A DNA stretch of 31,090 nucleotides from Pseudomonadota bacterium. Its GTDB lineage: Bacteria > Pseudomonadota > Gammaproteobacteria > Burkholderiales > Burkholderiaceae_C. The stretch lies in NCBI GenBank assembly GCA_041160585.1, contig JBEAWD010000191.1, forward strand, positions 1 through 31,090, read 5' to 3'. Both the position numbers and the translations under genes were made by a program. The notes beneath the pieces are model-generated. The model searched no databases. It saw only the letters and a program-made list of their open reading frames with translations, and was not told the DNA's origin. Shown in pieces: positions 1,195 to 27,930 of this stretch (its first letter is position 1; every line of letters begins with the position of its first letter).

Positions 1195-3648
1195 TCACTC
1201 GCAAACGCCAGCCGGCGTTGCGCGACCCACCTTCAGACCAAGGTGGCTGGCCGAAACGCGCTCGGTGCCGGGAACGTTTCGGTGGATGGGGCGATTGACC
1301 AACTCGGCGCGGCCATCCGTGCCGCGCACCACCAAGGTACTGGTGCCGCCACCGTCCAGGTTGATGCCCTCGCTGGCGCCCAAGGACTTCAGCCAATGGG
1401 CCAGGTCGTGCAGCGTGGCGCCCAGGCTGTAGTCGAACTGTCGACCGTCGACCACGAGGAGCCACATCCACCGTCCGTCGGCTGAGACCCCCACGGCGGT
1501 GCGGGGGTGCACGGATGGCACCACGGCCTTGGGCGCCACATCGGCGCCTTCGCGCAGCACGATGTCGAATCCACCGACCGCGTTGTACACGCCACTGTCC
1601 GGAAAAGGCGGGGGCTGGATGCGGACACTGCCATCGTCCATCATCAACAGCGCCGGGTACTCCCGCGAAGGGCCAGACACGACACGGCCACGGCTGACCT
1701 GAAAACCCACCACATCGAGCAGTAGCCCCTCCTGCGCGACCACCGGGCCGAATGGTGCAGCGTTGATGGCCAGGTGCAGGCCGTGCTGCTCCAGAAAGGT
1801 GCTCGTCTTGACGCCGAGGGTCTCCGGCGTGTGGCGCCCCGGGGGTGCGATGGGTGCCTCGCCCGGCGCAGCCGCCGGGGTGGCCAGCCACTGCAGGCAC
1901 GGCATTCGAAGGTCTACGCGAGCCACATGCAGCACCGCCTGCCGCGGCACTTGCACCTGTATGCGGGCCAGGTCAACGCCGGGAAACCGTGTCGACCAAT
2001 CAGGCCTCAGGGCGAAGCCGTCCTCGCCAGAGGGCGCACCCGGCCGCAGCGGGACGCGCATGTCCTCACGCCGGTCCAGCAGCAGTTCAACGGATGTCCA
2101 AGGCTCGGTCAGCTCCACCGACAGCGGGCCGCGCTGCGGCTGACGGACCAATCGAATCTCCTGCCACGACCCGAAATTCTCAGTGCCGTCGGTGCCCTGG
2201 CGTTTGCCGATCAGACGGTAGCGGCCGGGTGGAAGATTCGGCGTGGTCCAAACGGTGGTGGTCGATGCGGCCGTGGGCTGCATGACCCACGGTGCCGGCC
2301 GCCAGCCGAGGGTAAAGCGCGGCGAGTGCGCTGGCCCCTGCCGTTCGTACCAATGCTTCAACTCCTGCGGATAGCGCTGCAACACACCTCGGCTGAACCA
2401 CAGGACGTGCCCGCCCTGCCCCAAACCATCAACCAACTCCATCGAACGACGCAACTGGTCCCAGGAAGAGTCGGGACCGTCGCCGACGACTCGGATGCCG
2501 GCCACCAACTCTGAAGGCCGGTAGGCGCTGCGGGCCTGCACCGCGGCTGTCTGTTCCCGCCAGGTGGCCTCAAAGGTTTCGTAGCTCGTTCGATAGGCCT
2601 GAGGGATCACTTCATCCCAATGCGGCACCACACGGCGTGCACCCTCGCTGCGAGGCAGCGTACCCCGCAGGCGGTCGGCCTCAGACCATGCCGTCCAGCG
2701 AGGCCAGTCCAGCAAGTGGTGTTGCCAGCTCCAGGGATAGACGGCCGGGCTCAGCGAAATCACAAGGCCCGGCCGACGGGCTCGAACCTCCTGCACGAAC
2801 CACCGTGCGTACTCGTCGATCTTGGATGCACGCCAGCGCATCCAGGCCGGATCGTTGTGGTCGTTCGGGGGCTGCGCGCCTCGATGCTCAGCGGCGTAGA
2901 CGCTGCGGGTGTAGTCGTCATAGCCCATGGTCACATGCGGCCAAACGATGCGGTCATCGAGTTGCACGCCGTCAAGATCGTAGCGATCGATGGCTTCGAG
3001 CACCAGGTCGAGCAGCAACTCCCTCGCACTTGGATGCAGTGGGTTAAGCCACACAAAACCGTTGGGCGCAATCTCACTGCCCTGCAGGTTCCGGCTGAGC
3101 CAATCCGGCTTGAGGCGGCGCAGGTGGTTCATGGTGGACTGATGCGCTGCCATGAAGCCGTATTCGAACCAGGCGATGGCCACCAGCCCCTGACGGTGAG
3201 CCTCGGTGACGGCTTCGTGCAAAAGGTCTCGCGCAGGCTGCGTGCGTGATGCAGGCGCATCCTTCGGGTCCTGCTCGATACCGCTTGGCCGTTGCGCTAC
3301 GCCGATGGCGCGGCGCAAGGCCTCCGAGGGAAACTGCGTGTAACCGTTCTTCCAAGCTTCGATGTAGACCGTGTTCAGTCCGATTTCACGCAGGCGCTGC
3401 ATGGTGCGCGCGGTGTTCTGCGGTGTGGACAGTGCATCGTTGGCGGTGGTGGTGAGCCAGGTGCCGCGCACCTGGGGACGACTGGCCGGCGAGGTGGCGG
3501 GCTGGGCAGATGGGCTTGTGGACAGCGGGGCCTCAGCCGTCTGGGAACGGGCAGTGCTTGCCCACAGAATGGCCAACAGGCACAAGACTGCGCCATGGGC
3601 CGCCCAAAGAAGGACAAACCGCCGGGAGTTTGGGAGTCGCCGCATCAT
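1195..3648 (-). CDS. Exported two-enzyme fusion: N-terminal GHL10 (YddW/DigH-like) glycoside hydrolase plus C-terminal NAGPA-type phosphodiester glycosidase
   Basis: Signal-like N-terminus (MMRRLPNSRRFVLLW...). GHL10 motifs: RGTWLTT, EAHRQGL, WFEYGF, YDLDGVQLDD. NAGPA/DUF2233 motifs: AINAAPF, HPRTAVG, LVVDGRQ, NLDGGGTS. Start placed at ATG 3648; the longer ORF overlaps the divergent gene's start region. Confidence 0.8.
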   Translation of the reverse strand: MMRRLPNSRRFVLLWAAHGAVLCLLAILWASTARSQTAEAPLSTSPSAQPATSPASRPQVRGTWLTTTANDALSTPQNTARTMQRLREIGLNTVYIEAWKNGYTQFPSEALRRAIGVAQRPSGIEQDPKDAPASRTQPARDLLHEAVTEAHRQGLVAIAWFEYGFMAAHQSTMNHLRRLKPDWLSRNLQGSEIAPNGFVWLNPLHPSARELLLDLVLEAIDRYDLDGVQLDDRIVWPHVTMGYDDYTRSVYAAEHRGAQPPNDHNDPAWMRWRASKIDEYARWFVQEVRARRPGLVISLSPAVYPWSWQHHLLDWPRWTAWSEADRLRGTLPRSEGARRVVPHWDEVIPQAYRTSYETFEATWREQTAAVQARSAYRPSELVAGIRVVGDGPDSSWDQLRRSMELVDGLGQGGHVLWFSRGVLQRYPQELKHWYERQGPAHSPRFTLGWRPAPWVMQPTAASTTTVWTTPNLPPGRYRLIGKRQGTDGTENFGSWQEIRLVRQPQRGPLSVELTEPWTSVELLLDRREDMRVPLRPGAPSGEDGFALRPDWSTRFPGVDLARIQVQVPRQAVLHVARVDLRMPCLQWLATPAAAPGEAPIAPPGRHTPETLGVKTSTFLEQHGLHLAINAAPFGPVVAQEGLLLDVVGFQVSRGRVVSGPSREYPALLMMDDGSVRIQPPPFPDSGVYNAVGGFDIVLREGADVAPKAVVPSVHPRTAVGVSADGRWMWLLVVDGRQFDYSLGATLHDLAHWLKSLGASEGINLDGGGTSTLVVRGTDGRAELVNRPIHRNVPGTERVSASHLGLKVGRATPAGVCE

Positions 3649-3735
3649 CGAGGTCACCGTTTGCGGATGGTATCCGTCGCATCGCCCAGGCACCGGCCCT
3701 TTGCAAGGAGAATGGAGATTCACTTCGAGAAGTCC

Positions 3736-4764
3736 ATGCATCCCATCTCCCACATGCGACGCGAGGCCTTGCAGTCAGCGTCGGTGGTGGCCGAACTCCT
3801 GCAACAGGATGACGCCACGCTGAACACCCTGACGGCTTACCTCCAGCGCCGCGCACCGCCACACATCGTCACCATCGCCCGCGGCAGCAGCGACCACGCA
3901 GCAGCCTTTTTTGCCTACCTGTGCATGCTGCGAATGGGGCGCTACGTCACCTCTGTGCCGCCTTCCCTGCTGAGCCTGCATCAGGCACCGCTTCAGCGCT
4001 CGGGAACGCTGGCCCTGGCCTTCTCTCAAAGCGGACGCAGTCCCGACCTGGTCACGGCCACTGCCTACTTCAGCGGACCGGACAGCCACAGCGTGGCCCT
4101 GGTCAATGATGCGGCCTCGCCCCTGGCCCAACAGGCCCAGACGGTTCTGCCGCTGCACGCAGGTACCGAAGTCAGCGTGGCGGCCACCAAGAGCTTCATC
4201 GCCCAGCTGGTGGCGGGCGCCCGGCTGCTGGCCGTGTGGCAGGGCGACACCACGCTGCAGACTGCACTGGCGCAACTGCCCACCTCGCTGGAGGTGGCTG
4301 CGCAGCAAGACTGGGGTGAGGCCGTACAGGCCTTCAGCACAGTGGATCGCCTCATGGTGGTCAGCCGCGGCACCGGGATGGCCGTGGCGCTGGAGGCCGC
4401 GCTGAAGTTCAAGGAGACCTGCGGCATCCAGGCTGAAACGTTTTCCTGTGCCGAGTTGCGGCATGGGCCGATGGCCCTGATCGACCAAGGCTACCCGCTG
4501 CTGATTCTGGCCCCACGGGGACCTGCGCAGGCCGAAATGCGAGCCCTGGCCGCGGAGATGCGCGCACGAGGCGCACGCGTGCTCTTGGCCGCCTGCGGAG
4601 ATCCACAGCGCGATGAGTTGCCCGCCACCACTGCAGCCCATCCGGATCTCGACCCGGTGTGCCTGATCCAGTCTTTCTACCTGATGGTCGAGGCGCTCTC
4701 GCGCAATCGGGGACGCAACCCCGACCAGCCGAGTTTCCTGTCGAAGGTCACGCTCACGAATTGA
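3736..4764 (+). CDS. SIS-domain glucosamine-6-phosphate deaminase (NagB-II/GlmS C-terminal-like)
   Basis: ARGSSDHAA, SQSGRSPDL, SVAATKSF, EAALKFKET, ELRHGP, LSKVTLT motifs of stand-alone double-SIS deaminases. No glutaminase domain. ATG 3736 follows GAGAAG. Confidence 0.85.
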   Translation: MHPISHMRREALQSASVVAELLQQDDATLNTLTAYLQRRAPPHIVTIARGSSDHAAAFFAYLCMLRMGRYVTSVPPSLLSLHQAPLQRSGTLALAFSQSGRSPDLVTATAYFSGPDSHSVALVNDAASPLAQQAQTVLPLHAGTEVSVAATKSFIAQLVAGARLLAVWQGDTTLQTALAQLPTSLEVAAQQDWGEAVQAFSTVDRLMVVSRGTGMAVALEAALKFKETCGIQAETFSCAELRHGPMALIDQGYPLLILAPRGPAQAEMRALAAEMRARGARVLLAACGDPQRDELPATTAAHPDLDPVCLIQSFYLMVEALSRNRGRNPDQPSFLSKVTLTN

Positions 4765-4785: not shown

Positions 4786-6249
4786 TCACGCGGCGTTCGA
4801 CGTCACTTGCGGGGGCTTGGAAATGATCCACAGCCCCGCGAACACCAGGGCGCCATTGAGCAGCAGCAACTCCAGTCCAATCCGCCAGGTCTCGAAGATC
4901 ATCGGCTGCAGCGCATCCAGTACCCCGCAGGCCACCGGTGCGAGCACGGTCATCAGGGGAACCCACCGGTCGCGCACGCGCCGCCTTGTCCACCAACCAA
5001 AGGCAAATAGGCCCAACAGGGGCCCATAGGTGTAGCTGGCCACCTTCAGGATTAGGCCGATCATGCTGGGGTCGTCCAACCAGCGAAACCCCATCACCAG
5101 CAGAAGGAAGACCGCCGCGTAGGCCAGGTGCACCCGCTTGCGGACGGACTCCTGCTGGGCCGCGCTCCAATCGGTGCGTCGCGCAAAGGACATGAGGTCG
5201 TTGCAGGTGGACGAGGTCAGTGCCGTCAGAGCCCCGTCGGCACTGGGAAACAAGGCAGAGATCAAGGCGAGTATGAAGATCACCTGCACGTAGTCCGGCA
5301 GGTGTCCCATCACGACGGCGGGAAACAGCCGGTCGCCCCGCTCGGCGATGCCCGCCTGCTGCGCGAACAGCATCAACAGTCCGCCCAGGAACAGAAAGGC
5401 CAGCACCACCACCGACATGGCCGTGGCCATGCACACCATGTTGAGCTGTGAGCCTCTGAGGGTGCGCACCGAGATGTTCTTCTGCATCATCTCCTGGTCC
5501 ATGCCCGTCATGGCAATCGCAATGGCCGCACCCGCCAGCAACTGTTTGAGCCAGTACTCTTTGGCCGCCGGCTCCGTTCCCCATACCCGAGCCAGGCCCT
5601 GCTCCTGCATCTGAGTCAGTGCCTGAAGTCCGGAGATGTCCAGGGCCTGCAGAATGAAGACGATGCACGCGCCCAGGCCGAAGAGCATGCCAGCCGTCTG
5701 CAGCGTGTCGGTCCACACGATGGTCTTGACGCCACCGCGCCAGGTGTAGAGCAGGATCATGGCCACCATCACCGTGGCGGTCATGCCGAATGAGAGCCCC
5801 AAGCGCTCCAGGATCACGTCCTGCAGGATGCGCACCACCAGATACAGGCGCGCGGTGGCACCCAACGTTCGCGACAGGATGAAGAAACCGGCCGCCATGC
5901 GCAGTGCTGATGGCCCAAGGCGATCTTCTATCCAGCCGTAGATGGACACCAGACCCAGCCGGTAGTACAGCGGCAGCAACACCCAAGCGACCACCGCATA
6001 GCCCAGCAGGTGGCCCATCATGATCTGCCAGTAGGAAAAGCCACTGGCCCCCACCGCACCGGGCACGCTGATGAAGGTCACCCCCGACAGCGAGGTACCG
6101 ATCATGCCGAAGGCCACCAGCGGCCACGCGCTGTTGCGGTTGCCGACGAAGAACGATTGGTTGTCGGCGCCCTCGGATGTCCGCCACGCCACGGCGAATA
6201 ACAGGGCGAAGTACAAGAGCACACAGGTGAACAGCACCCACGGATTCAA
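4786..6249 (-). CDS. Sodium:solute symporter (SSS family), candidate amino-sugar importer
   Basis: About 13 hydrophobic segments; FFVGNR, SGVTFISVPG, GGVKTIVWTD, DQEMMQK, SADGAL SSS motifs. TTG start. Confidence 0.85.
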   Translation of the reverse strand: MNPWVLFTCVLLYFALLFAVAWRTSEGADNQSFFVGNRNSAWPLVAFGMIGTSLSGVTFISVPGAVGASGFSYWQIMMGHLLGYAVVAWVLLPLYYRLGLVSIYGWIEDRLGPSALRMAAGFFILSRTLGATARLYLVVRILQDVILERLGLSFGMTATVMVAMILLYTWRGGVKTIVWTDTLQTAGMLFGLGACIVFILQALDISGLQALTQMQEQGLARVWGTEPAAKEYWLKQLLAGAAIAIAMTGMDQEMMQKNISVRTLRGSQLNMVCMATAMSVVVLAFLFLGGLLMLFAQQAGIAERGDRLFPAVVMGHLPDYVQVIFILALISALFPSADGALTALTSSTCNDLMSFARRTDWSAAQQESVRKRVHLAYAAVFLLLVMGFRWLDDPSMIGLILKVASYTYGPLLGLFAFGWWTRRRVRDRWVPLMTVLAPVACGVLDALQPMIFETWRIGLELLLLNGALVFAGLWIISKPPQVTSNAA

Positions 6250-6289: not shown

Positions 6290-7249
6290 TCAGCCGCGCT
6301 GCACGCTTTGGCGGGCTAGCACCCGCCCACTGAGGTAGGTCCACACGAAGTGCGCGGCGGCCTGGCTGGTCAGTTCAGCGTGGTCATATGGCGGACTCAC
6401 CTCGACGCAGTCCATCCCCACGAAGTTCAGGTCGGCCCAGCCTTCCAGCAGCGTCATCACCTGCGCCGTGCTCAAGCCCGCTGGCTCGGGTGTGCCGGTT
6501 CCCGGCGCGTGCGCGGGGTCCAGGCAGTCGATGTCCAGCGTCAGGTACAGGGGTGGATGGCCCGACGCGGCCATGCGCTGGCGAACGGCCTCGATCACTT
6601 CGCTCAACTGCCCCGCACCTTCAAGCCCACGCAGTGTCCTTGCCTCATACAGCAAGCCCCCCTCGGTGCGCACGCGCTCGCGCACGCCACGCTCGGCGGC
6701 ACTGCGGATGCCGATCTGCACCACGCACTCGGGGCGAACCAGTCCCTGCTCGAATGCCTCGTGCAGCCAAGTGCCATGGCCGCTGGGTTCACCGAAATGG
6801 TCGTGCCAGGTGTCGCAATGCGCGTCGAAATGGATCAGCGCAAGGGGCTGCCCCACGCGTTCTCGATAGGCCTGCAGCAGCGGCAGGGTCACCGAATGAT
6901 CACCGCCCAACCACACCATGTGCCGTTGCGCAATCAACTCCCGCACCTGAGGCAGCATGGCCTGCCGCATAGCCGCCAGCGAGGTGTTGGGCATCACCAG
7001 GTCGCCATGGTCTTGCAGATGATCCAGAGGCGATACGTCAAAAAAGGGATGAATCCCGTCACACAACATGTGGCTGGCCTGGCGGATGGCGCCAGGCCCA
7101 TGGCGCGCACCACTGCGGTTGGTGACTGAACCATCCCACGGCAATCCGGCAAGCCCGAACGGCGCCGATTCGGCGGCCGCGCGGCCAAGGGGCGAGATGG
7201 CCGGCCGTGCACGCATGAAGGTGGTTTGACTGGAGTAGGGAAACATCAT
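6290..7249 (-). CDS. speB: Agmatinase / ureohydrolase family
   Basis: GLPWDGSVTNRSGARHGP, GGDHSVT, DAHCD, HGT, DIDCLDP, PGTGTP, DCVEVSP: full arginase-family di-metal ligand set. Confidence 0.85.
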   Translation of the reverse strand: MMFPYSSQTTFMRARPAISPLGRAAAESAPFGLAGLPWDGSVTNRSGARHGPGAIRQASHMLCDGIHPFFDVSPLDHLQDHGDLVMPNTSLAAMRQAMLPQVRELIAQRHMVWLGGDHSVTLPLLQAYRERVGQPLALIHFDAHCDTWHDHFGEPSGHGTWLHEAFEQGLVRPECVVQIGIRSAAERGVRERVRTEGGLLYEARTLRGLEGAGQLSEVIEAVRQRMAASGHPPLYLTLDIDCLDPAHAPGTGTPEPAGLSTAQVMTLLEGWADLNFVGMDCVEVSPPYDHAELTSQAAAHFVWTYLSGRVLARQSVQRG

Positions 7250-7280: not shown

Positions 7281-8204
7281 TCATTCGGCACTCCACAATT
7301 CCCGAGCGCGATGTGCCGCGGCAAGGGAAGGTTCAATCTGCTTCAACTCCAAAGGGCAATCCTCGGGCAAGCCCGCGCGCACGCCCTGGCCCACCAGAGG
7401 GTGCAGCAACAGCACGCGCCCTGAGGCTACCACTGGCCTGGGCCCGAAGCGGCGATGCAGCACCGCACCCAAGCGGCCGATTTCCACACCGGCGCGCCGC
7501 AACAAGGAAGCGGCTTCAGCGTCACCCAAGTCAGCCGCTTCGGCCACTGCCAATGCCAGGCGGCCCACCTCGCCGCGCTCGCGGCCATAGATGAACTGCC
7601 GCGTGCTGGCCCAGTCGGTTCCGCCCATTCGCGCGAACAGGCAGCGCGCCATGGGGCTCTCCACCCACTGCCCAGGCCAGTCGTCCTCGCGCCGCCAGAT
7701 GGTGGCCAGGGCCTGCTTGGCGATCCAGTAGCCACCGCCTTCATCGCCCAACACAAAGCCGCGGCCACCGGCTCGGTGCCACACGCCCGCCTCGTCGATG
7801 TAGGAGGCGATCGAGCCGGTGCCCGCATACACCAGGTAGCCGCCACCGGGCTCATGCGCGGCGCGAAAGGCGATGTCCATGTCGCTGTGGCATTGGACGC
7901 AGGCCGCCGGTGCACACAGGGCGCGGGCCAACATCCCCGCCAGCTCCAAGGACGGTGCAGCCCGCGGTTCGCTCACACCGGTCACGCCTGCATACACGCC
8001 GCCCACCGTGCTGGGCGACAACTGCTGCGCAAGGGAAGATTGCAGTTCGTCCAGGGCCCGTGACAACTGCAGCCGACCCGCCGGGCTGGACAGGTTCATG
8101 CCGCTGAAACCCGTCACCTGCGCCTGCGCCTGGACCCGACCACCGGTGTCCACGGCCGTCCATCGGCACGCGGTGCCGCCGGCATCCAGCCCGATGAAGA
8201 TCAC
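7281..8204 (-). CDS. BadF/BadG/BcrA/BcrD-family N-acetylamino-sugar kinase (NagK- or MurK-like)
   Basis: IGLDAGGT phosphate-1 motif, SDMDIA, AGTGSI, RAGGRGFVLGDEGGGYWI. GTG 8204 overlaps the upstream stop (GTGA). Confidence 0.85.
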   Translation of the reverse strand: MIFIGLDAGGTACRWTAVDTGGRVQAQAQVTGFSGMNLSSPAGRLQLSRALDELQSSLAQQLSPSTVGGVYAGVTGVSEPRAAPSLELAGMLARALCAPAACVQCHSDMDIAFRAAHEPGGGYLVYAGTGSIASYIDEAGVWHRAGGRGFVLGDEGGGYWIAKQALATIWRREDDWPGQWVESPMARCLFARMGGTDWASTRQFIYGRERGEVGRLALAVAEAADLGDAEAASLLRRAGVEIGRLGAVLHRRFGPRPVVASGRVLLLHPLVGQGVRAGLPEDCPLELKQIEPSLAAAHRARELWSAE

Positions 8205-11884: not shown

Positions 11885-11906
11885 CTGAAAACGCCCGTTG
11901 TTTCAG
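11885..11906. promoter_or_regulatory. Inverted repeat in the nagA/hypothetical divergent intergenic region (candidate operator)
   Basis: CTGAAA-N10-TTTCAG. Confidence 0.3.
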
Positions 11907-11950
11907 CCGACTGCCATCATCTATCCCCCCTAAGCTTCAACCCAACGCCC

Positions 11951-15737: not shown

Positions 15738-15771
15738 CGCAGCACCCGGTGGTGCTGCGTTACATTTTTTT
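15738..15771 (+). terminator. Hairpin plus T-tract (intrinsic terminator-like) upstream of the receptor gene
   Basis: CGCAGCACC-cggt-GGTGCTGCG (9-bp stem) followed by TTACATTTTTTT. Confidence 0.45.
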
Positions 15772-15816
15772 GGTTAAGCACCCGGCCCTCAACTGGGCCA
15801 TGCGTAGGAGATCCGC

Positions 15817-18693: not shown

Positions 18694-18700
18694 TACTGCG

Positions 18701-19687: not shown

Positions 19688-20310
19688 GTGCGGCCATGCA
19701 CCCCGCAGCGATTTCCTGCGAGTCGGTCGCCGATCACCCCGACTTCGTCCACCTGTCGACGCTGACGGAAATCGCGGTGAACATCCGCTATGCCGGCACA
19801 AACAACTTCAGCGGGCGTTGCCTGTACCCGAATCTGGACTGCGCCTGGCTGCGAAGACCGGCGGCCATGGGCTTGCAACGCGCGGCTCGATGGCTTGATG
19901 CCCATCGGCCAGGCTACCGGCTGCTGGTGCTGGACGCACTGCGTCCTCAGCGTGTGCAGGAGGCCATCTGGCGCCAGATTCAACATACGCCCATGGCCGC
20001 CTATTTCGCCGACCCGGTGCGCGGCTCGATCCACTCCTTCGGCATGGCGGTGGACGTGACCTTGCTCGATCCGCAGGGACGCGAGTGCGACATGGGCAGC
20101 GGCTTTGACGAGATGAGCGAGTTGTCGCATCCGGCCTTGGAATCGCAACACCTGGCCATGGGCCGCCTGAGTGCGGATCATCTGCGCGAGCGGGGTTGGC
20201 TGTATGCGGCGATGGCAGCCGGCGGATTTCAGGGGATCACCACCGAGTGGTGGCACTTCGATCAAGGTGACCGTGAACAGGTGCGAAGGGAATTGCAGCG
20301 TGTGGCGTGA
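19684..20310 (+). CDS. ddpX: D-alanyl-D-alanine dipeptidase (M15D, VanX/DdpX family)
   Basis: DALRP, SIHSFGMAVDVTL (SxHxxGxAxD), DMGSGFDE, EWWHF. No signal peptide. Confidence 0.9.
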   Translation: MSAAMHPAAISCESVADHPDFVHLSTLTEIAVNIRYAGTNNFSGRCLYPNLDCAWLRRPAAMGLQRAARWLDAHRPGYRLLVLDALRPQRVQEAIWRQIQHTPMAAYFADPVRGSIHSFGMAVDVTLLDPQGRECDMGSGFDEMSELSHPALESQHLAMGRLSADHLRERGWLYAAMAAGGFQGITTEWWHFDQGDREQVRRELQRVA

Positions 20311-21427
20311 ATCGATTCAATCTCCCCATCGGCGTCGGATGCTGACGGCAGCAGCAGGCGTGATGGTCGGTGCGGCCACCGTGATCAGCTCGCGGGCATG
20401 GGCGCAGGCGCCGATCGTCGGTGCCGCTGCGGGCGGCGGATCCAATACCGCACCGCTGCGGGCACTTCAGCCGCCGCGCCCGCTGATCAAGCCGCCTCGG
20501 CTTCAGCCTGGCCAGACCATCGGCCTGGTGGCCCCATCCGGCGCCGTACCCGAGCGCCTACCCCTGGAGATCGCCCATGACACGCTGACCGCCTTGGGCT
20601 TCAAGGTCAAGGAAAGCCCGCAACTGCGTGCGCGCCGTGGTCACTTCGCCGGTACCGATGAGCAGAGGGCCGCAGGCCTGAACGCGATGTTTGCCGATCC
20701 GGACGTGCAGGGCGTACTGGCCATCACCGGTGGCTCGGGTGCCAATCGGATCCTGCCTCTGTTGGACTACGCGCAGTTGCGCCGCACGCCAAAGTTTGTC
20801 GGCGGTTTTTCCGACATCACGGCCTTGCTGCATGCCGTGCACAGCCAAACCGGCTTGGTCACCTACCACTGCCCGGCCGGGGTGTCGGAGTGGAATGAAT
20901 TCAGCTGGCGCCACTTCAGGGGTGTGGCGATGGAGGGCACGCCCGTGCTGATGCGAAACGAGGCCGACAAGGGTTCGCTGCCCGCCCCGCGCGAGGACCG
21001 TACCCAGACGATCAGGCCAGGCCTGGCGCGCGGCCCTCTGTTGGGCGGGAACTTGGCGGTGTTGTCCTCGCTGTGCGGCTCGCCCTACCTTCGCTCCTTC
21101 GACGGCGCGATCCTCTTCCTTGAGGAAATCAACGAGTACATCTACCGGGTGGACCGCATGCTGTCCACACTGAAGTTGTCCGGTGTGCTGGACCGTGTGG
21201 CCGGCGTGATGATCGGCGCCTTCACCAACTGCAAGCCCGGCGAGGGGTTCTGGACCTTGACGCTCGACGAGGTGTTCGAGGATTACTTCGGTGGCTTGGG
21301 CGTGCCGGTGTACCGCGGCGCCTCGTTCGGCCACATCAAGCGCAAGTTCACCTTGCCCTTGGGCGTGCAGGCCGAGATCGACGCCAACGCCGGCACCGTG
21401 CGGCTGCTGGAGTCCGCTGTGGCCTGA
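20300..21427 (+). CDS. ldcA: LD-carboxypeptidase (S66) with a twin-arginine-like signal
   Basis: IGLVAPSG, GFSDIT (Ser), LFLEEINE (Glu), FGH (His). N-terminus HRRRMLTAAAGVMVGAA...AWAQ. Start placed at GTG 20300 after GAAGGGA. Confidence 0.88.
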   Translation: MWRESIQSPHRRRMLTAAAGVMVGAATVISSRAWAQAPIVGAAAGGGSNTAPLRALQPPRPLIKPPRLQPGQTIGLVAPSGAVPERLPLEIAHDTLTALGFKVKESPQLRARRGHFAGTDEQRAAGLNAMFADPDVQGVLAITGGSGANRILPLLDYAQLRRTPKFVGGFSDITALLHAVHSQTGLVTYHCPAGVSEWNEFSWRHFRGVAMEGTPVLMRNEADKGSLPAPREDRTQTIRPGLARGPLLGGNLAVLSSLCGSPYLRSFDGAILFLEEINEYIYRVDRMLSTLKLSGVLDRVAGVMIGAFTNCKPGEGFWTLTLDEVFEDYFGGLGVPVYRGASFGHIKRKFTLPLGVQAEIDANAGTVRLLESAVA

Positions 21428-21464
21428 GCCTGCAGGCGTGTTGGCGGCAGGGCGCGTAGTGGCG

Positions 21465-23144
21465 CTAACGCGCGGCTGCAGCCGCGCCGCCCGCAGCCAC
21501 CCAATCGGCCACCGCATCCAACACCGGTCGACCGCGGCGGGGTGCTTCGTCGTGGTTGACCATGGCCGCCATCACCCACCGGCGCCCCTGTGCATCCTCC
21601 ACATAGCCGGCCAGGGCCACCACATTGCGCAGTGTGCCGGGCTTCAGGCGCGCACGGCCGCGCGCGGGCGTGTCGGTCATGCGACTGCGCAGTGAGCCAT
21701 CCACGCCGGCCACCGGCAGGCTCATCATCAGCTCGCTGGAAAACAGCTGGCCGTGAGCAGCCTGCAGCACCATCGCCAATTGGCGCGGGGTGATGCGCTC
21801 GCTGCGCGACAAGCCCGAGCCGTTGTCCATCACCAAACCCTCCAAGGGTATGCCGTGCTGCGTGAACCAACGCCGCACTGACGCATCGGCCCAGTCTCGT
21901 GTGCTGCGATCGGGCGCCGCGGCCGCGCCAGCTGTACCTTGCGCGCGCTTTTGTTCTTCAAGCCCCGTGAGCAGATACAGCACGCGCGTGGCCACGTTGT
22001 CCGAGGTCTTGTTCAAGGGCCGCAGCCACTCGCCCCAAGGGCGTGCCTCACGACGGGCGATCAGGCGCGTGGCCTGGCCCGCGGGCGGCTGGGCGTTGGC
22101 CGCAGCCTCCGGCACCCCATTGAGCGCGGTGCTGGTGTAGGCGAATTCGCCCGGGGCCGCCTCCCTCACTCGCCCGTTCCATTGACCACCCAACTCGTTC
22201 CACACCCAACGCAGTTGCGCCTGTGCCTGCAGGTTGCGCTCCATGAGCTGCAGGGCCGGACGCTGTGTGCAGTCGGTGGGGTATCGACCCTGCAGGCGCA
22301 CGACGACCGTGCCCTCACGGTCTTGCTCAAAGGTCGGCGTGATCCATCCGGCGGTGCTCCAATCCCGACAGGCCACCGAACCCGGGGCGTGCAGGGTCAG
22401 CCGGTTGTCCACACGCACGCCGGGCAGCTCAGGCCGCAGCTTGGCAACCACCTGCTGGCGGTCGGACACCAGCTCCAGCCCGTGCAGGTTGCCGCTGAGT
22501 TGGAGCGCGTCCGGGATCACGTTGTAGGGAAACTCGGGGGACTCATCGAATGGCGGCACACCAAGGTCCAGACGCGCCGGTTGGAACAGATGGCGGTCCA
22601 ACACGATGTTGCCGTCAATGTGCCGCACGCCGGCTTCTCTCAGTTCCAGCATCAAGGCCCACAACTGCGGAAGGCCCAGTTCCAGATCGGCACCGCCGCG
22701 CAGCAGCAGATCGCCCTTGAGCCGTCCCCCTTCGATGGGTGCGGCGGTTCGCAACTCGGTGTAGCCGCGCAGGTTCGGGCCCACGCGGTCCAGCGCCACC
22801 GCACTCGTGACCACTTTCATGGCTGAGGCGGGCTGCATGGACCGATCGGCCTGGTGCAGCCAGCCCGATGAAGGGGCTGAGCCCAGCGCCACACCACCGC
22901 CTACGGCCTGGCCGGAATGCCCCAAGGGCAAGACCGCCACAGCCAGGGTCGATGGGTCGAGGCCGGCCTTGTCCAGGGCTGCCCTCACCGACGCTGGAAA
23001 GGCGGGCGGCGTTGGCCCCTGGTGGGCACACCCCGCCAGGGCCAGCAGGCACGCAAAGCCCCAAACGGCCCGTGACTTGGGCCATCGGCGCTGGGTCGGG
23101 TGGCCTGCGCTGAGGCCGCTGCGGATCGAATCGATGGATTGCAT
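21465..23144 (-). CDS. dacB: D-Ala-D-Ala carboxypeptidase/endopeptidase PBP4 (S13), lipoprotein; third motif reads KPG
   Basis: Lipobox LAGC, PASAMK (SxxK), SDN, DNGSGLSR, LPVAGVDG, KPGT. ATG 23144 is preceded by TATGAT-N6. Confidence 0.88.
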   Translation of the reverse strand: MQSIDSIRSGLSAGHPTQRRWPKSRAVWGFACLLALAGCAHQGPTPPAFPASVRAALDKAGLDPSTLAVAVLPLGHSGQAVGGGVALGSAPSSGWLHQADRSMQPASAMKVVTSAVALDRVGPNLRGYTELRTAAPIEGGRLKGDLLLRGGADLELGLPQLWALMLELREAGVRHIDGNIVLDRHLFQPARLDLGVPPFDESPEFPYNVIPDALQLSGNLHGLELVSDRQQVVAKLRPELPGVRVDNRLTLHAPGSVACRDWSTAGWITPTFEQDREGTVVVRLQGRYPTDCTQRPALQLMERNLQAQAQLRWVWNELGGQWNGRVREAAPGEFAYTSTALNGVPEAAANAQPPAGQATRLIARREARPWGEWLRPLNKTSDNVATRVLYLLTGLEEQKRAQGTAGAAAAPDRSTRDWADASVRRWFTQHGIPLEGLVMDNGSGLSRSERITPRQLAMVLQAAHGQLFSSELMMSLPVAGVDGSLRSRMTDTPARGRARLKPGTLRNVVALAGYVEDAQGRRWVMAAMVNHDEAPRRGRPVLDAVADWVAAGGAAAAAR

Positions 23145-23283
23145 GCGCCCATCATAAGTAGACGTTGCCGATACACGGGCCATGCCTTGCGGTAATGGAT
23201 GGCATTGAAGTTGGCATCCAGCCCGAACGCATCAGGGCTGCAGCGGGTGTGTGGGCGCCCGGGGCCGGCGCACAATAGCGCGC

Positions 23284-24141
23284 ATGCAACCTCTCTTGCG
23301 CCTTGGTGCCCTGCGTCGGCCCTTTGCAGCCGGTTGGGCCGCGCTCGCCTTGGCCTTGGCCTCGGTTCTGGGCTTGGCCGGTTGCGCCGGCCCCCGCATT
23401 GATGCCCACACCTACCAGGCCGTCAGCCATGACAGCCGCGCCCAGTTCCTCATACTGCACTACACGGCCTTGGACCTGGAGCAGTCCATCCGCGTCCTCA
23501 CACAGCAACGGGTGTCCTCACACTATCTGGTGACGGACGAGGCCACACCGCGCATCTATCGGCTGGTCGACGAAGACCGACGCGCCTGGCATGCCGGGGT
23601 CAGCGCTTGGGACGGTCACGCCATGCTCAATGGCAATTCGATCGGCATCGAAATCGTCAACCTGGGCAACCGGGCAGGAACCGATGGCCGCCCGACTGAA
23701 TTCCAGCCCTATCCGCCCGCGCAGGTTGAGCTTGTGGTGGAACTGGTGCGCGACATCGTCAAGCGCCATCAGATACGACCCGACCGCGTGCTGGGGCACA
23801 GCGACATCGCACCCCAGCGCAAGATCGACCCCGGCCCGCTGTTTCCCTGGAAAAGGTTGGCCGAAGAGGGCCTGGTGCGGTGGCCCAAGGATGAAGCGGT
23901 CCAGGAGGCGCTGGCGCTCTATGGCGCGTCCGTGCCACCGGTTCCCTGGTTCCAACAGGCCTTGGCCAAGCATGGCTTCGTCGTGGCCCAACACGGCGAA
24001 CTCGACGAGCCCACCCGGCGCGTTGTCGCGGCATTTCAGATGAAGTACCGGCCCTCGAAGTACGACGGCCAACCCGACGCCGAGACAGCGGCCCTCCTCA
24101 CCGCCCTGACCGGCCTACGCCACGTGGCCAAGGCACCATGA
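23284..24141 (+). CDS. amiD: N-acetylmuramoyl-L-alanine amidase (Amidase_2, AmiD-like lipoprotein) with C-terminal PG-binding domain
   Basis: Lipobox LAGC, LHYT, VSSHYL, RAWHAGVS, SIGIEIVN, GHSDIAPQRKIDPG, AFQMKYRP. Confidence 0.9.
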   Translation: MQPLLRLGALRRPFAAGWAALALALASVLGLAGCAGPRIDAHTYQAVSHDSRAQFLILHYTALDLEQSIRVLTQQRVSSHYLVTDEATPRIYRLVDEDRRAWHAGVSAWDGHAMLNGNSIGIEIVNLGNRAGTDGRPTEFQPYPPAQVELVVELVRDIVKRHQIRPDRVLGHSDIAPQRKIDPGPLFPWKRLAEEGLVRWPKDEAVQEALALYGASVPPVPWFQQALAKHGFVVAQHGELDEPTRRVVAAFQMKYRPSKYDGQPDAETAALLTALTGLRHVAKAP

Positions 24142-25757
24142 GCCTTTCGCGGCGGCTTTGGCTTGAGCAGTCGGCGTGCGGCGCAGGGATCGCCGCAGCA
24201 ACCCTGCTGGGCACCGGTTGCAGCGCCTGGACGGATGCGTCCACGCAAACCTCAGGGACTCCGTCGGGCAGCCAGCGCTTGCCAAGCGTCGATCTGGAGG
24301 CATCGGCCTTGCCCGCAGCGCCACTTCGCGAGTGGCGCGCCGCCTGGGTGGCCAGCGTGGCGCACATCGACTGGCCCAAGCAAGCCGGCCTGTCGGCCAC
24401 CGAGCTGCGCGGGCAGATCCTGCAGATCGTGCAGCGCACACAGGCCATCGGCCTGAACGCGCTGATCCTGCAGGTGCGCCCTGCAGCCGATGCGCTGTAT
24501 CGCTCCGAGCTGGAGCCTCCCAGCGAGTACTTGAGTGCCGGCGGACAACCCGAGCTCGGCTTCGACGCCCTGCAAGAGTGGATCACCGTTTCCCATGCAC
24601 ACGGACTGGAGCTGCATGCGTGGTTCAACCCCTACCGCGCGCGGCACCCCTCGGCGCGCCAGCCCATCCATGAGAATCACGTGGCCCGTCGGCGTCCAGA
24701 GTGGGTTCACCGCTACGGTGACTTCCTGTGGCTGGACCCCGGTCACCCCGAGGCCCAGGCGCACAGCCTGAACGTCATCAGCGATGTCGTGCGCCGCTAC
24801 GACCTCGATGGGGTGCATGTCGACGACTACTTCTATCCCTATCCCATCAAGGGCAGCGACGGCCGCGACATCCCCTTCCCCGATCAGGAGAGCTTCAAAC
24901 GCTACCGCCGAGCGGGGCTTTCGGACAACGATGCCGACCGGGCCAAGTGGCGCCGCGAAAACGTGGATCGCTTCGTCGAGCAGATGTACAAACGCACCCA
25001 CGCGCTCAAGCCATGGGTGCAGGTGACCATCAGCCCATTCGGTATCGGTCGACCCGATCGAAGGCCCAGCGGCATCGCCGGCTTCAGCCAATACGACCAC
25101 TTGCATGCCGATGTCGAACACTGGTGCGAACAGGGATGGCTCGATGCGCTGGTGCCGCAGCTGTACTGGCCTCGCAACCGTCCAGCACAATCCTTCGAAA
25201 AGCTGTTGGACTACTGGCTGTCGGCCAATCCGCAGGGGCGCCATGTATGGCCCGGCCTTTACACGAGCTCGGTTGCCAACGGCACGCCGACAGCGTGGGC
25301 GCCTGAGGAGGTTCTGTGGCAGATCGACCGGCAGCGCGAACGCCGGGCCTCGACCGGACATGCCCATTTCAGCCTGCAGGCCCTGATGCAAGACCGCGGC
25401 GGCCTGGCCACCGAGCTGCCGCGATCCCGCTATGCCTCTGCTGCCCTGCCCCCGGCCACGCCGTGGTGGGGTACGGGCACACCACCATCGGCGCCACAGG
25501 CGTACCGGCAGCCCGATGGCCGAATCGCCTTGTCCAGCCCCGCTGCCGTGCCGTCGGGCCCATCCACGGCGCAGGACGCGCGCCGCTTCCTCGTGTGGCG
25601 CCGGCCTGCGGGCAACGGATCAAGCAGCTGGACGCTGCGCGTGGTGCAGGCTCAACACACACTCGACGCCGGCAAGTCCGACGAGCTCATCGTGGTGCAG
25701 GCGATCGACGCCGTGGGTCGAGAAGGGCCGCGCCGGGCCTTCATCGCGAGGGCTTGA
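24138..25757 (+). CDS. GHL10 family glycoside hydrolase (YddW/DigH-like), Tat lipoprotein
   Basis: SRRLWL plus LGTGC; EWRAAWVASVAHIDWP, LQVRPAADALY, LHAWFNPYR, WLDPG, YDLDGVHVDDYFYPY, PQLYW. ATGA overlap with amiD. Confidence 0.88.
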   Translation: MSLSRRLWLEQSACGAGIAAATLLGTGCSAWTDASTQTSGTPSGSQRLPSVDLEASALPAAPLREWRAAWVASVAHIDWPKQAGLSATELRGQILQIVQRTQAIGLNALILQVRPAADALYRSELEPPSEYLSAGGQPELGFDALQEWITVSHAHGLELHAWFNPYRARHPSARQPIHENHVARRRPEWVHRYGDFLWLDPGHPEAQAHSLNVISDVVRRYDLDGVHVDDYFYPYPIKGSDGRDIPFPDQESFKRYRRAGLSDNDADRAKWRRENVDRFVEQMYKRTHALKPWVQVTISPFGIGRPDRRPSGIAGFSQYDHLHADVEHWCEQGWLDALVPQLYWPRNRPAQSFEKLLDYWLSANPQGRHVWPGLYTSSVANGTPTAWAPEEVLWQIDRQRERRASTGHAHFSLQALMQDRGGLATELPRSRYASAALPPATPWWGTGTPPSAPQAYRQPDGRIALSSPAAVPSGPSTAQDARRFLVWRRPAGNGSSSWTLRVVQAQHTLDAGKSDELIVVQAIDAVGREGPRRAFIARA

Positions 25758-25782
25758 CGCTGCGCCTGCGGCACGCGGTCAC

Positions 25783-26679
25783 ATGAGCACGCCCCCCACC
25801 CGTACCGAATCCACCAACGACGCGCATGCCGACTTGGACCGGTATGACACGTCCACCCTCGTGGGCGCCCTCATCGACGATCACGCGGTGGCCGTGCAAG
25901 CGGTCAAGGCCGCCGCAGCGCAGTTGATGGTCGCCGTGGAGGCAAGCGCCGAACGCCTGGCGCGGGGTGGGCGTCTGATCTATGCGGGTGCGGGCACCAG
26001 TGGCCGGTTGGGCGTGCTGGATGCGGTGGAGCTCAACCCCACCTTCTCCTGGCCACGCCATCGCGCCCCGGCCCTGCTGGCCGGCGGCGACGGCGCCATG
26101 TTCTTGGCGGTGGAAGGTGCCGAGGACGATGGTGCGCAAGGCGCGCAAGACCTGCACCGCCTGGGTCCGCGCCCCGAGGATGTGGTGTTCGCCATTGCCG
26201 CCTCCGGCACCACACCGTTCGCGCTGGGCGTGCTGGCCGCCGCGCGTTCATTGGGTTGTCTGACCATCGGCATGGCCAACAACCCCGACGCTCCCCTGGT
26301 GAGCGTCGCTGAGATCGGCATCGTGCTGGACACCGGCCCTGAAGTGATCTCCGGCAGCACGCGCCTGAAGGCCGGCACCGCACAGAAGGTGGCACTCAAC
26401 AGTTTTTCAAGCGCGGTGATGGTGCGCTTGCACAAGGTGTACGGCAACCTGATGGTCGACCTGCGCGCCACCAACATCAAGCTGGTGCAGCGCGCGGTGC
26501 GCCTGACCATGCAGGCCAGCGGCGTCGGTCAGATGCAGGCCGAGGCCGCCCTGCGCGAATGCGGCTTTCAGGTGAAGGTGGCCGTGGTGATGCTGCGCTT
26601 GGGGCTGGACGCTGAGGCGGCACAGGCGCGGTTGGCCGCTGAGGCCGGCAACCTGCGCGCTGCCCTGGGGGAAGCCTGA
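25783..26679 (+). CDS. murQ: N-acetylmuramic acid 6-phosphate etherase
   Basis: RTESTN, GAGTSGRLGVLDAVELNPTF, AVEGAED, GPEVISGSTRLKAGTAQK, NLMVDLRATNIKL. Confidence 0.95.
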   Translation: MSTPPTRTESTNDAHADLDRYDTSTLVGALIDDHAVAVQAVKAAAAQLMVAVEASAERLARGGRLIYAGAGTSGRLGVLDAVELNPTFSWPRHRAPALLAGGDGAMFLAVEGAEDDGAQGAQDLHRLGPRPEDVVFAIAASGTTPFALGVLAAARSLGCLTIGMANNPDAPLVSVAEIGIVLDTGPEVISGSTRLKAGTAQKVALNSFSSAVMVRLHKVYGNLMVDLRATNIKLVQRAVRLTMQASGVGQMQAEAALRECGFQVKVAVVMLRLGLDAEAAQARLAAEAGNLRAALGEA

Positions 26680-26682
26680 AGT

Positions 26683-27930
26683 TCAGGCTGTACCGAGCGC
26701 AAACGAGTCGCCCTGCAGCTCAACGGGCAAGGCCAGCCCGTTCATCTGCGAGGCCAGCAATTGCGCGCTGCCTGCGGCGAAGGTGAAGCCCAAGGCACCG
26801 TGCCCCAGGTTCAGCCACAGTCCGGGCACGCCGCTGGGCCCCACGATGGGCGCACCGCTGGGCGTGGCCGGGCGCAGACCGGCCCATGGCTCGGCGGCCG
26901 CATAGTCACCGGCTCGCGGCATGTCCGCGCGCGCCACCCGCAGCAGGGATTGCAGCCGTCGCTGGTCGATGGCCTCGCTGTGGCCCACCAGATCGACCAT
27001 GGCCGCCACGCGCAGCCTCTGGCCGATGCGCGCATACAGCACCTTGCGATCGAAGTCGGTGATGCTGGCACGCGGTGCCACGTGTTCGGTCCCGATGGGT
27101 GCGTCCAGGCTGTAGCCCTTGAGGGGATACAGGGGCAGCTTCAGCCCCAAGGGCGAGGCCAGTTGGCGGCTGGCGATGCCGGCGGCCAACACCACTGCGT
27201 CAGCACCGTGGGTGGCTTGCGCGCCGATCAGGGTCACGCGCCCACCCTCGGGCACCAGGCGCTGCACGCTGTCCAACACCATGCCGTCGAACCTGGGATG
27301 CGCCTGCAAGCTGGCCATCAGGCTGGTGCAGAAGGCGTGGCAGTCGGCCACCGCTTCGTCATGGCTGTAAATGCCCCCGGCCACCTGCGGCCCCAGGTGC
27401 TCCAGGGCCGGCTCCTGCGCCATGCACTGTGCGCGATCCCAAGCCTGCTGGGTCGCATCCATCGACGCGGCCGCGCCCTTGAGCGACGAGGCGCTGCGGA
27501 ACAGCACCAGCTTGCCGGCCTGTTTCCATTCAAAGCCCTGAACGCCCTGCTCGTGCATGAGTTGGTGCAGACAAGCCCGGCTGTATTGGCCCAGCCTTGC
27601 CAGACGCGCGGCCGTGGCCCGGTTGTCGCGACCGTTGCATAGCGCAAGAAAGCGCCCTAGCCAACGCCATTGGATGGCTTCGGCCTGTGGCCGCCAGCGC
27701 AAGGGGCCGTCAGGGTCGAGCAACCAGCGCAAGGCCTTCAGCGGAACACCCGCATCGGCCAGCGGGGCCACATAGCGATAGCTCAGCTGCCCCCCGTTGC
27801 GAAGGCTCGTGCCCTGCGCCACGCCGCGGGCATCCAGCAGGCGCACGCGCCAACCGGATTCAGCCAGGGCCCATGCGGTGGTAATGCCCACCACGCCGGC
27901 GCCCAGGACAACGGCATGCCCCTTCATCAT
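26683..27930 (-). CDS. FAD-dependent D-amino acid dehydrogenase (DadA superfamily; looks DguA/D-glutamate type)
   Basis: GAGVVG FAD motif, NGGQLSYRYVAPLADAGVPL, YPLKGYS, WAGLRPATP, GHGALGFT. Confidence 0.85.
   Translation of the reverse strand: MMKGHAVVLGAGVVGITTAWALAESGWRVRLLDARGVAQGTSLRNGGQLSYRYVAPLADAGVPLKALRWLLDPDGPLRWRPQAEAIQWRWLGRFLALCNGRDNRATAARLARLGQYSRACLHQLMHEQGVQGFEWKQAGKLVLFRSASSLKGAAASMDATQQAWDRAQCMAQEPALEHLGPQVAGGIYSHDEAVADCHAFCTSLMASLQAHPRFDGMVLDSVQRLVPEGGRVTLIGAQATHGADAVVLAAGIASRQLASPLGLKLPLYPLKGYSLDAPIGTEHVAPRASITDFDRKVLYARIGQRLRVAAMVDLVGHSEAIDQRRLQSLLRVARADMPRAGDYAAAEPWAGLRPATPSGAPIVGPSGVPGLWLNLGHGALGFTFAAGSAQLLASQMNGLALPVELQGDSFALGTA

Follow-up and report, generated by a model that had tools for sequence, protein, structure and literature searches.

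Introduction

Does the DNA analysed here encode a system by which a freshwater bacterium takes up and consumes fragments of peptidoglycan, and what part would the TonB-dependent outer-membrane transporter (TBDT) at its centre play? Dissolved organic matter receives a large and steady supply of peptidoglycan, and the planktonic bacteria that remove it, as well as the means by which they do so, are poorly known, which gives the question its relevance. The stretch of 31,090 nucleotides (hereafter the window; 66% G+C) is the entire contig JBEAWD010000191.1 (C134) of the Burkholderiaceae_C assembly GCA_041160585.1, a metagenome-assembled genome (MAG) of 2.44 Mb in 313 contigs that is 92% complete. 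A first-pass annotation, made from the letters alone, had described a receptor-centred locus for harvesting peptidoglycan. Here, we find the receptor kept in a cluster with about 20 genes for wall fragments, which makes it a probable, so far uncharacterised route for the uptake of wall debris. We consider it likely that the locus as a whole is a LysR-controlled system for the uptake and catabolism of peptidoglycan fragments, working alongside ordinary recycling.

Results

The receptor and its wall-gene partners

Is the vicinity of receptor and wall genes a chance arrangement? An alignment of 12 receptor orthologs retrieved more than 580 related loci, and the best 80 of these, whose receptors are 53-99% identical, were analysed with 10-kb flanks by tblastn with the window proteins. 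We counted a wall-specific gene set consisting of AmpG2 (a divergent AmpG-family permease), LdcA, PBP4, AmiD, DdpX, MurQ and GHL10. At least one of them lies in 48 of the 53 betaproteobacterial ortholog loci, at least two in 35/53 and at least four in 13/53; among the five loci without any, two carry the serine hydrolase or the AstE-like gene of the window, and the other three are on contigs that are short or cut off. As a control, 20-kb windows around 40 unrelated receptors were taken from three genomes of the same family. A wall gene was found in 3/40 (L092, L106, L113), each time no more than a distant S66 paralog (31-32% identity), while AmpG, PBP4, AmiD, DdpX, MurQ and GHL10 occur in none of the 40. 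The linkage of the receptor to wall genes is far above chance, and the annotated claim that the receptor belongs with them is borne out by this comparison (48/53 against 3/40). Separately, the S66 (LdcA/MccF-like) paralogs within 10 kb of three of the 40 unrelated receptors hint at a wider association of S66 proteins with receptor-mediated uptake.

Gene order varies widely across the loci, and what stays constant is the receptor. Directly beside it, the genes met most often are AmpG2, which lies upstream and divergent in 15 loci, LdcA, which lies downstream in 13, and PBP4, which lies upstream in 8. A minimal recurrent module consists of AmpG2 next to the series receptor, PBP-A-like hydrolase, signal-less LdcA2 and AstE-like protein; the window has LdcA1 instead. 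In a tree of the 80 receptors, the linkage appears in all deep branches of the Betaproteobacteria (among them Sphaerotilaceae, Oxalobacteraceae, Comamonadaceae and Rhodocyclaceae) and in one Sphingomonadaceae/Sphingomicrobiaceae clade, whereas the receptor copies of Sphingosinicellaceae, Caulobacterales and Steroidobacteraceae lack it.

Do the genes also travel together when they are not neighbours? Among 61 genomes of the family, drawn from 60 genera with one per genus except for the window's own, the receptor (E <=1e-150) is present in ten, GHL10 in exactly the same ten, and MurQ in those plus one. Several of these genomes have the genes on separate contigs or at distances of 23-167 kb, so that the co-occurrence is more than synteny restated.

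The receptor itself has a signal peptide and a TonB-box-like segment, and it reaches the cut-off of no curated subfamily; the weak curated matches of its plug are BtuB and siderophore receptors.

Organisation of the locus

Gene frames were chosen by third-position G+C and then scanned against Pfam and NCBIfam. These family searches gave 20 intact genes at 1195-27930, and every gene named by the first-pass annotation was found, intact and in its place. The contents of that interval stand; its end falls short by one AstE/AspA-like gene (28036-29007), the 21st, which belongs with the locus. The features are as follows, with bit scores set against family cut-offs where these apply.

1195-3648, minus strand: exported fusion of a glycosidase-like GHL10 domain and a NAGPA domain (Pfam GHL10 1.9e-48, NAGPA 1.6e-27; SRRFVLL in the signal peptide)
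3754-4764, plus strand: NagB-II-type (SIS) glucosamine-6-phosphate deaminase (NCBIfam NagB_SO3506 4.5e-82; Pfam SIS)
4786-6249, minus strand: SSS sodium:solute symporter (Pfam SSF 2.8e-22; TIGR00813)
6290-7249, minus strand: agmatinase-family ureohydrolase (NF002564, 336 bits, above the cut-off of 302)
7281-8219, minus strand: BadF/BadG-type sugar kinase of the family of N-acetylglucosamine (GlcNAc) and N-acetylmuramic acid (MurNAc) kinases (Pfam BcrAD_BadFG 4.4e-17)
8201-9355, minus strand: NagX-like transmembrane acetyltransferase (NF046061 2.5e-47; Pfam HGSNAT_cat)
9352-10644, minus strand: AmpG2, divergent AmpG-family permease of the major facilitator superfamily (TIGR00901, 168 bits, below the cut-off of 350)
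10625-11815, minus strand: NagA, GlcNAc-6-phosphate deacetylase (TIGR00221, 250 bits, above the cut-off of 226)
11951-12994, plus strand: orphan membrane-anchored protein, without a Pfam family
13080-14327, plus strand: fused Gate (SpmA/SpmB-like) membrane protein (Pfam Gate in two stretches, 4.3e-25)
14320-15549, plus strand: cytoplasmic penicillin-recognising serine hydrolase of the PBP-A/class A beta-lactamase fold (SxxK, SxN, KTG)
15689-15707: exact dyad, palindrome with an ATAAC-N5-GTTAT core (T-N11-A type), candidate LysR operator
15817-18693, plus strand: TonB-dependent outer-membrane transporter (Pfam Plug and barrel)
18701-19687, plus strand: LysR-type regulator, 7 nt past the receptor gene (Pfam HTH_1, LysR_substrate)
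19696-20310, plus strand: DdpX, D-Ala-D-Ala dipeptidase (Pfam Peptidase_M15 3.6e-28)
20300-21427, plus strand: LdcA1, LD-carboxypeptidase exported by the twin-arginine translocation (Tat) pathway (Pfam Peptidase_S66, S66C)
21465-23144, minus strand: lipoprotein PBP4-type (S13) DD-carboxypeptidase/endopeptidase (TIGR00666, 171 bits, above the cut-off of 108)
23284-24141, plus strand: AmiD-type lipoprotein N-acetylmuramoyl-L-alanine amidase (Pfam Amidase_2, PG_binding_1)
24138-25757, plus strand: GHL10b, DigH/Cwp19-like lipoprotein (PDB Cwp19 5oq2, E 5.4e-63)
25783-26679, plus strand: MurQ, MurNAc-6-phosphate etherase (NF003915, 358 bits, above the cut-off of 168)
26683-27930, minus strand: DadA-type D-amino acid dehydrogenase (NF001933, 411 bits, above the cut-off of 383)
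27985-28003: weak, degenerate copy of the dyad with the shared half-site CCATAACC, upstream of the dehydrogenase gene
28036-29007, minus strand: zinc amidohydrolase of the AstE/AspA family (Pfam AstE_AspA_cat)

The spacing of the genes suggests a minus-strand transcription unit nagA-ampG2-nagX-kinase-agmatinase-SSS (overlaps of 4-20 nt, gaps of 31-40 nt), the units gate-hydrolase (8-nt overlap), receptor-lysR-ddpX-ldcA and amiD-GHL10-murQ, and single-gene units for PBP4, the D-amino acid dehydrogenase, NagB-II and GHL10-NAGPA.

Predicted wall enzymes

GHL10b is a full-length homolog of the characterised GHL10 enzymes DigH and Cwp19; it shares 30% identity with E. coli DigH over 390 residues (E 3e-51), in an alignment that begins at the lipobox cysteine. 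Cwp19 is a lytic transglycosylase (PMC6016235), and DigH serves the degradation of denuded, i.e. peptide-free, glycans (PMC12288456). We therefore predict GHL10b to be a DigH/Cwp19-like enzyme that cleaves peptidoglycan glycan strands. The amidase gene lies directly 5' of this gene for a denuded-glycan enzyme, and the two thus form a coherent pair. The GHL10-NAGPA protein matches DUF2233, NAGPA and Cwp19 in the PDB, and the fusion is kept in the MAG locus L021 and in the same-genus genome G062. Its NAGPA domain (1195-2061) is of the phosphodiester glycosidase type and could, by analogy with the uncovering enzyme, cut GlcNAc-1-phosphate linkage units and so yield MurNAc-6-phosphate, the substrate of MurQ.

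Among the enzymes for the peptide part, DdpX is 36% identical to E. coli DdpX (E 6e-33). Receptor loci hold two types of LdcA (L013, L038, L056, L060, L075, L079, L080), some of them both; LdcA1, the type of the window, has orthologs that likewise carry Tat or lipoprotein signals, and LdcA2 is signal-less and adjoins the PBP-A-like hydrolase. In this serine hydrolase of 409 residues, present in 20 related loci, SxxK, SxN and KTG are invariant across 21 orthologs; its structural model (predicted local distance difference test score 91) best fits the cyanobacterial DD-peptidase PBP-A (2j7v) and also class A beta-lactamases. The AstE-like protein accompanies the receptor in 22/80 related loci, and its HxxE, His and Glu (zinc and catalytic residues) are invariant in 18 orthologs. 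An identity as MpaA had been considered for this M14-like gene and was rejected, for both sequence and fold group with AstE, AspA, DoeB and CphZ, the best matches of the model, and the wall carboxypeptidase Csd4 is a distant match only. AstE, AspA, DoeB and CphZ are hydrolases of N-acyl-amino acids and isopeptide dipeptides, and the AstE-like amidohydrolase is a candidate for a remaining bond of the stem peptide.

Where do these enzymes act? Judged by eye from the N-termini, lipoboxes are present on AmiD (LGLAGC), PBP4 (LALAGC) and GHL10b, and twin-arginine-like signals on LdcA (HRRRMLT, cleavage site AWA/Q), GHL10b and GHL10-NAGPA (SRRFVLL), so that export signals are found on five enzymes in total (AmiD, PBP4, GHL10b, LdcA and GHL10-NAGPA). 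The same inspection revealed no signal peptide on the serine hydrolase, DdpX, MurQ, NagA, the AstE-like protein or LysR, and NagB-II and the kinase start directly at their catalytic domains. The hydrolases of the locus look periplasmic or anchored as lipoproteins or in the outer membrane, and none looks secreted. The exported enzymes of the earlier description are thus exported to the periplasm or to an outer-membrane anchor and apparently not beyond.

Sugar, amino acid and transport genes

The catabolic end points listed by the first-pass annotation (MurQ, NagA, NagB-II, DdpX and DadA) are all present. Three of the sugar genes stay under equivalog cut-offs, namely NagB-II (NagB_SO3506, 276 bits against 430), NagX (NF046061, 162 against 480) and the kinase when compared with the NagK family (60 against 370). 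The kinase matches NAGK and the MurNAc/GlcNAc kinase 8zo3 in the PDB. Being a BadF/G kinase of the MurK/NagK and not the AnmK type, it would suit MurNAc or GlcNAc with a free reducing end. Reducing-end sugars are products of hydrolases such as lysozymes or endolysins, and the kinase type hence hints at fragments from outside sources.

The SSS symporter is the last gene of the nagA operon and is 91% identical in G062. AmpG2 and the Gate protein, the latter present in 13 related loci, are candidate importers at the inner membrane, AmpG2 for muropeptides. The agmatinase gene inside the amino-sugar operon recurs in four other instances (L001, L021, L038 and G062); we know of no peptidoglycan pathway that uses an agmatinase.

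The orphan at 11951-12994 has no homolog in the 80 related loci or elsewhere in the genome, and it is missing in G062, where nagA and the Gate gene lie 34 nt apart. It is a lineage-specific insertion outside the conserved system. A minus-strand frame at 11930-12985 was discarded as a gene in favour of this plus-strand orphan. Short RNA contigs cover the 5' end of the orphan (11906-12082) in all four metatranscriptomes described below, three of which share C>A at 12029. Just outside the locus, at 269-1165, lies a gene for a TupA-like tungstate/anion-binding protein (230 bits, below the cut-off of 400) without partner ABC genes within the window.

Regulation and transcription

The exact dyad at 15689-15707 precedes the receptor gene by about 130 nt. 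In the four other loci where lysR follows the receptor (L001-L003 and L021), the same dyad is found at -125 to -155 of the receptor, as a single occurrence per locus of 17.6-22.9 kb. Among more distant loci, it heads the receptor-holding operon in L067 and L078 and the lysR-holding operon in L038 and L075. A T-N11-A dyad upstream of an operon and conserved in orthologous loci is what a LysR-type regulon displays, and we regard this one as a candidate LysR operator. The degenerate dyad at 27985-28003 has two mismatches; at least two matches arise in 1/100 shuffles. The best curated family of the regulator is PRK11013, and the protein is 29% identical to E. coli LysR (E 3e-27). This family match offers diaminopimelate (DAP) or a DAP-peptide as a possible effector, as a lead only.

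Is the receptor gene transcribed? It turns up in 21 metatranscriptome runs from fresh water. In four of them, each from a different study, receptor contigs begin 11-29 nt 5' of the start codon and cover most or all of the gene, and some extend into lysR. Between the dyad and the receptor start lies a terminator-like hairpin with a T-run (15737-15770), and the RNA contigs begin at 15788-15806; this hairpin may coincide in part with the promoter or serve as a leader element.

Source organism and close relatives of the locus

The source organism is a widespread freshwater lake bacterium. At least 20 metagenomes of lakes or fresh water, produced by many different studies, contain near-identical DNA, and the nearest relatives of the receptor come from lake MAGs of Burkholderiales of the Rubrivivax/Leptothrix type. 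The genome has a size of about 2.4-2.7 Mb and the lifestyle is planktonic.

The same locus is found in G062, a 99% complete genome of the same genus, at 10-37 kb of contig C13 (L121-L123). There, two additional TonB-dependent receptors and a second BadF/G kinase are present, inserted at two places, one between GHL10-NAGPA and nagB-II and one between the agmatinase and kinase genes. In the MAG locus L021, compared with 13080-29007 of the window, the receptor is 99% and the Gate protein 97% identical, and identity falls to 88-91% in the flanks and then to 58-84%. This gradient, centred on the receptor, suggests a recent recombination or transfer of the segment.

Discussion

A proposed course of uptake and degradation

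How could the parts work together? We propose that soluble muropeptides (about 0.9-1.9 kDa, over the porin limit and dilute in lake water) would enter via the TBDT. In the periplasm, the PBP4-type lipoprotein would open cross-links and take off terminal D-Ala, AmiD would remove stem peptides from MurNAc, the Tat-exported LdcA would trim tetrapeptides, and the DigH/Cwp19-like GHL10 enzymes would cleave the bared glycan. AmpG2, the Gate-domain protein and the SSS carrier would then bring the products through the inner membrane into the cytoplasm, where the BadF/G kinase, MurQ, NagA and NagB-II would turn the sugars into fructose-6-phosphate, DdpX and the DadA-type dehydrogenase would convert D-Ala-D-Ala into pyruvate and ammonium, and the PBP-A-like hydrolase and the AstE-like amidohydrolase would probably finish the peptide. 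Four elements of this course are what we infer: the substrate of the receptor, the order of the steps, the assignment of the carriers and the origin of the fragments mainly in other cells.

The best fit to the data is an uptake of soluble muropeptides shed by other cells and not an attack on intact walls. The first-pass annotation had also offered predation. Nothing suggests an attack on living cells, and neither a planktonic genome of this size nor a set of hydrolases that are periplasmic or lipoprotein-anchored, none of them apparently secreted, speaks for it.

Several observations weigh against an uptake and catabolic system for outside fragments. The receptor barrel matches no characterised transporter and solved structures match the plug domain alone, so that these structures allow no statement on the substrate. 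In the Sphingomonadales, Caulobacterales and Steroidobacteraceae, a wall gene is nearby in only about 10/27 ortholog loci; the neighbours of these alpha- and gammaproteobacterial orthologs are mostly housekeeping genes (EPSP synthase, Usp, tyrosine catabolism), and what recurs is limited to S13, LdcA and one MurQ cluster. The co-occurrence could partly reflect shared ancestry, as genomes that are related do not count as independent. Because all hydrolases of the locus look periplasmic, they could not attack polymeric wall outside the cell. A dedicated oligopeptide transporter is absent from the locus. Contrary to the initial view that each bond class is covered, no enzyme that cuts GlcNAc-beta-1,4-MurNAc was identified in the locus (the sole GH3/NagZ lies on contig C120), nor one that cuts L-Ala-D-Glu, and no locus enzyme can be assigned to the cleavage of gamma-D-Glu-DAP. 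The only S66 LD-carboxypeptidase found in the 92% complete genome is the locus copy, and LdcA may for this reason serve the cell's own recycling too. Lastly, the other locus genes are found at lower depth than the receptor in the four RNA runs, a difference biased by the selection of the runs with the receptor gene; the runs thus demonstrate transcription and not rank, and we discarded relative expression as ranking evidence.

Alternative readings

Could the locus serve the cell's own wall only? It would then trim the wall and recover its turnover, and the receptor would recapture fragments leaked through the outer membrane. AmiD, PBP4, LdcA and DigH have housekeeping roles in E. coli (PMC12288456 and general knowledge of recycling), and the periplasmic location of all hydrolases as well as the single S66 enzyme mentioned above would fit. 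However, the canonical recycling genes are on other contigs (AmpG on C1, AnmK on C266, NagZ, a GH3 candidate, on C120 and Mpl on C44), as are a second S13 gene (C156) and a second Amidase_2 gene (C36), and the AmpG, PBP4 and amidase of the locus are paralogs. Indeed, the canonical AmpG scores 439 bits on TIGR00901, far more than AmpG2, which is thus an AmpG-family permease as had been annotated, though a divergent paralog and not AmpG proper. With the canonical set elsewhere, the locus is an additional catabolic system, partly made of paralogs and built around the divergent AmpG; the separation from endogenous recycling that the first-pass annotation had drawn is confirmed by this distribution. 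Canonical Gram-negative recycling, as in E. coli and Caulobacter (PMC13046382, PMC10622912), uses the same enzyme families and the same logic of dismantling muropeptides, but it starts in the periplasm, re-uses the peptide via Mpl and needs no outer-membrane importer. Here, in contrast, LdcA is exported, and the combination of an equivalog-level AmpG with AnmK, NagZ and Mpl is not what the locus holds. Furthermore, the trait is accessory (10/61 family genomes), it ends in the catabolic enzymes MurQ, NagB-II, DdpX and DadA, and material already in the periplasm needs no energised outer-membrane importer. We therefore consider service to the own wall alone unlikely.

Alternatively, the receptor may import free D-amino-acid peptides (stem peptides, D-Ala-D-Ala) and not sugar-bearing muropeptides, the sugar genes being served otherwise. 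This would agree with its most frequent partners, LdcA, PBP4, DdpX, the PBP-A-like hydrolase and the AstE-like protein, which are all peptide enzymes, and with some sphingomonad loci that retain only LdcA or S13 beside the receptor. Yet the commonest immediate neighbour is AmpG2, and permeases of the AmpG family carry sugar-containing fragments; in addition, every genome of the family sample that has the receptor also has GHL10 and MurQ. A restriction to free peptides is accordingly an even less probable option, to which we give little weight.

Is the locus then one for GlcNAc or chito-oligosaccharides of the Shewanella/Xanthomonas type, with the wall enzymes as accessories? NagA, NagB-II, NagX and a NagK-like kinase are hallmark genes of such loci, and GlcNAc TonB-dependent receptors are known in Caulobacter and Xanthomonas (PMC13046382, PMC4173781). 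Here, no frame of the locus belongs to a chitinase or hexosaminidase family, the most constant partners of the receptor are stem-peptide enzymes and AmpG2 and not nag genes, and the nag-type genes, NagA excepted, remain below the equivalog cut-offs given above; NagP was not found. This makes a GlcNAc locus highly improbable. The GlcNAc system of Xanthomonas campestris is among the closest precedents and unites, in one cluster or regulon, a TBDT (NixC), an inner-membrane carrier, enzymes including NagA, NagB-II and further nag products, and a regulator (PMC4173781); the present locus differs in its wall-specific partners AmiD, PBP4, LdcA, DdpX, GHL10, MurQ and the AmpG paralog and in its LysR-type regulator.

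That the receptor transports iron, cobalamin or something unrelated, or that the cluster is a network for sensing or resisting beta-lactams with its placement by catabolic genes being coincidental, is hardly credible: the weak plug matches to BtuB and siderophore receptors and the resemblance of the set of LysR (AmpR-like), AmpG, amidase, PBP4 and beta-lactamase-fold protein to the AmpC induction circuit (general knowledge) are set against a window with no Fur box within three mismatches and no cobalamin riboswitch or other Rfam family, the lack of iron or cobalamin genes nearby, a beta-lactamase-fold protein that has no signal peptide and so cannot protect the periplasm, and a MurQ/GHL10 linkage and co-occurrence far above the control. 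Iron or B12 control, which the first-pass annotation had named as the alternative, was rejected on the same two regulatory searches.

Comparison with known systems

Uptake and catabolism of wall fragments, the reading we favour, places the locus between several described systems. Like the carbohydrate utilisation loci containing TBDTs (CUT loci) of Xanthomonas campestris, it combines a TBDT, inner-membrane carriers (AmpG2, SSS, Gate), enzymes (two GHL10, AmiD, PBP4, LdcA) and a regulator (LysR). With the SusC/SusD polysaccharide utilisation loci (PULs) of Bacteroidota it has in common a TBDT clustered with enzymes and carriers for one polymer. Membership among these was rejected, as the receptor scores 25 bits on TIGR04056 (cut-off 368) and the SusD family appears in no window frame; a surface glycan-binding or secreted enzyme is likewise not evident. 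The label PUL-like hence holds in the sense of a TBDT-centred, CUT-like locus and fails where it implies a SusC-type receptor and SusD.

Tannerella forsythia, another of the closest precedents, uses muropeptides that other bacteria release, with an AmpG-family permease, a MurNAc kinase of the BadF/G family and MurQ (PMC5388701, PMC7670621, PMC5790795). It differs in being a MurNAc auxotroph that salvages MurNAc for its own wall, with a system composed of AmpG, MurT-MurK-MurQ and NamZ1/2. In our locus, MurQ passes its cut-off and the kinase is of the right family, with a sugar specificity that cannot be read from its sequence; NamZ and MurT were not found in the window frames, and an outer-membrane importer and the catabolism of D-amino acids are added. 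Even in Tannerella, the best-studied scavenger, the crossing of the outer membrane by muropeptides is undefined (PMC5388701).

E. coli DigH has the same lipoprotein architecture as GHL10b, and DigH and Cwp19 both cleave the glycan strands of peptidoglycan; their target, however, is the wall of the cell that makes them, during division for DigH and autolysis for Cwp19 (PMC12288456, PMC6016235). Here, the gene belongs to the amiD-GHL10-murQ operon of a catabolic locus, and a second copy is fused to NAGPA.

Has a TBDT for muropeptides been described before? The first-pass annotation knew of none, and in the literature we found no characterised one either, in a coverage that leaves out most subscription journals, so that a prior description is possible. 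A suggestion does exist, since NixC of Xanthomonas campestris was proposed, on indirect genetic evidence, to import products of peptidoglycan (PMC4173781).

In summary, the analysis yields a family of receptors whose wall-gene partners are conserved, a candidate regulator together with a candidate operator that is likewise conserved, and carriers that can be cultured, such as Roseateles puraquae CCUG 52769, Undibacterium griseum FT31W, Pseudaquabacterium inlustre DXS22W and Massilia soli R798. The locus also provides a physiological context for the poorly understood families of GHL10-NAGPA fusions, Gate/SpmAB-like proteins, cytoplasmic PBP-A-like hydrolases and AstE-like proteins. Going further, we lean, by a modest degree, towards the view that this family supplies the outer-membrane importer for exogenous muropeptides that has been missing in Proteobacteria and that, together with AmpG2 and the peptide enzymes, it would constitute a widespread, transcribed pathway by which freshwater Burkholderiales and some sphingomonads may consume dissolved peptidoglycan and D-amino acids as a source of carbon and nitrogen.

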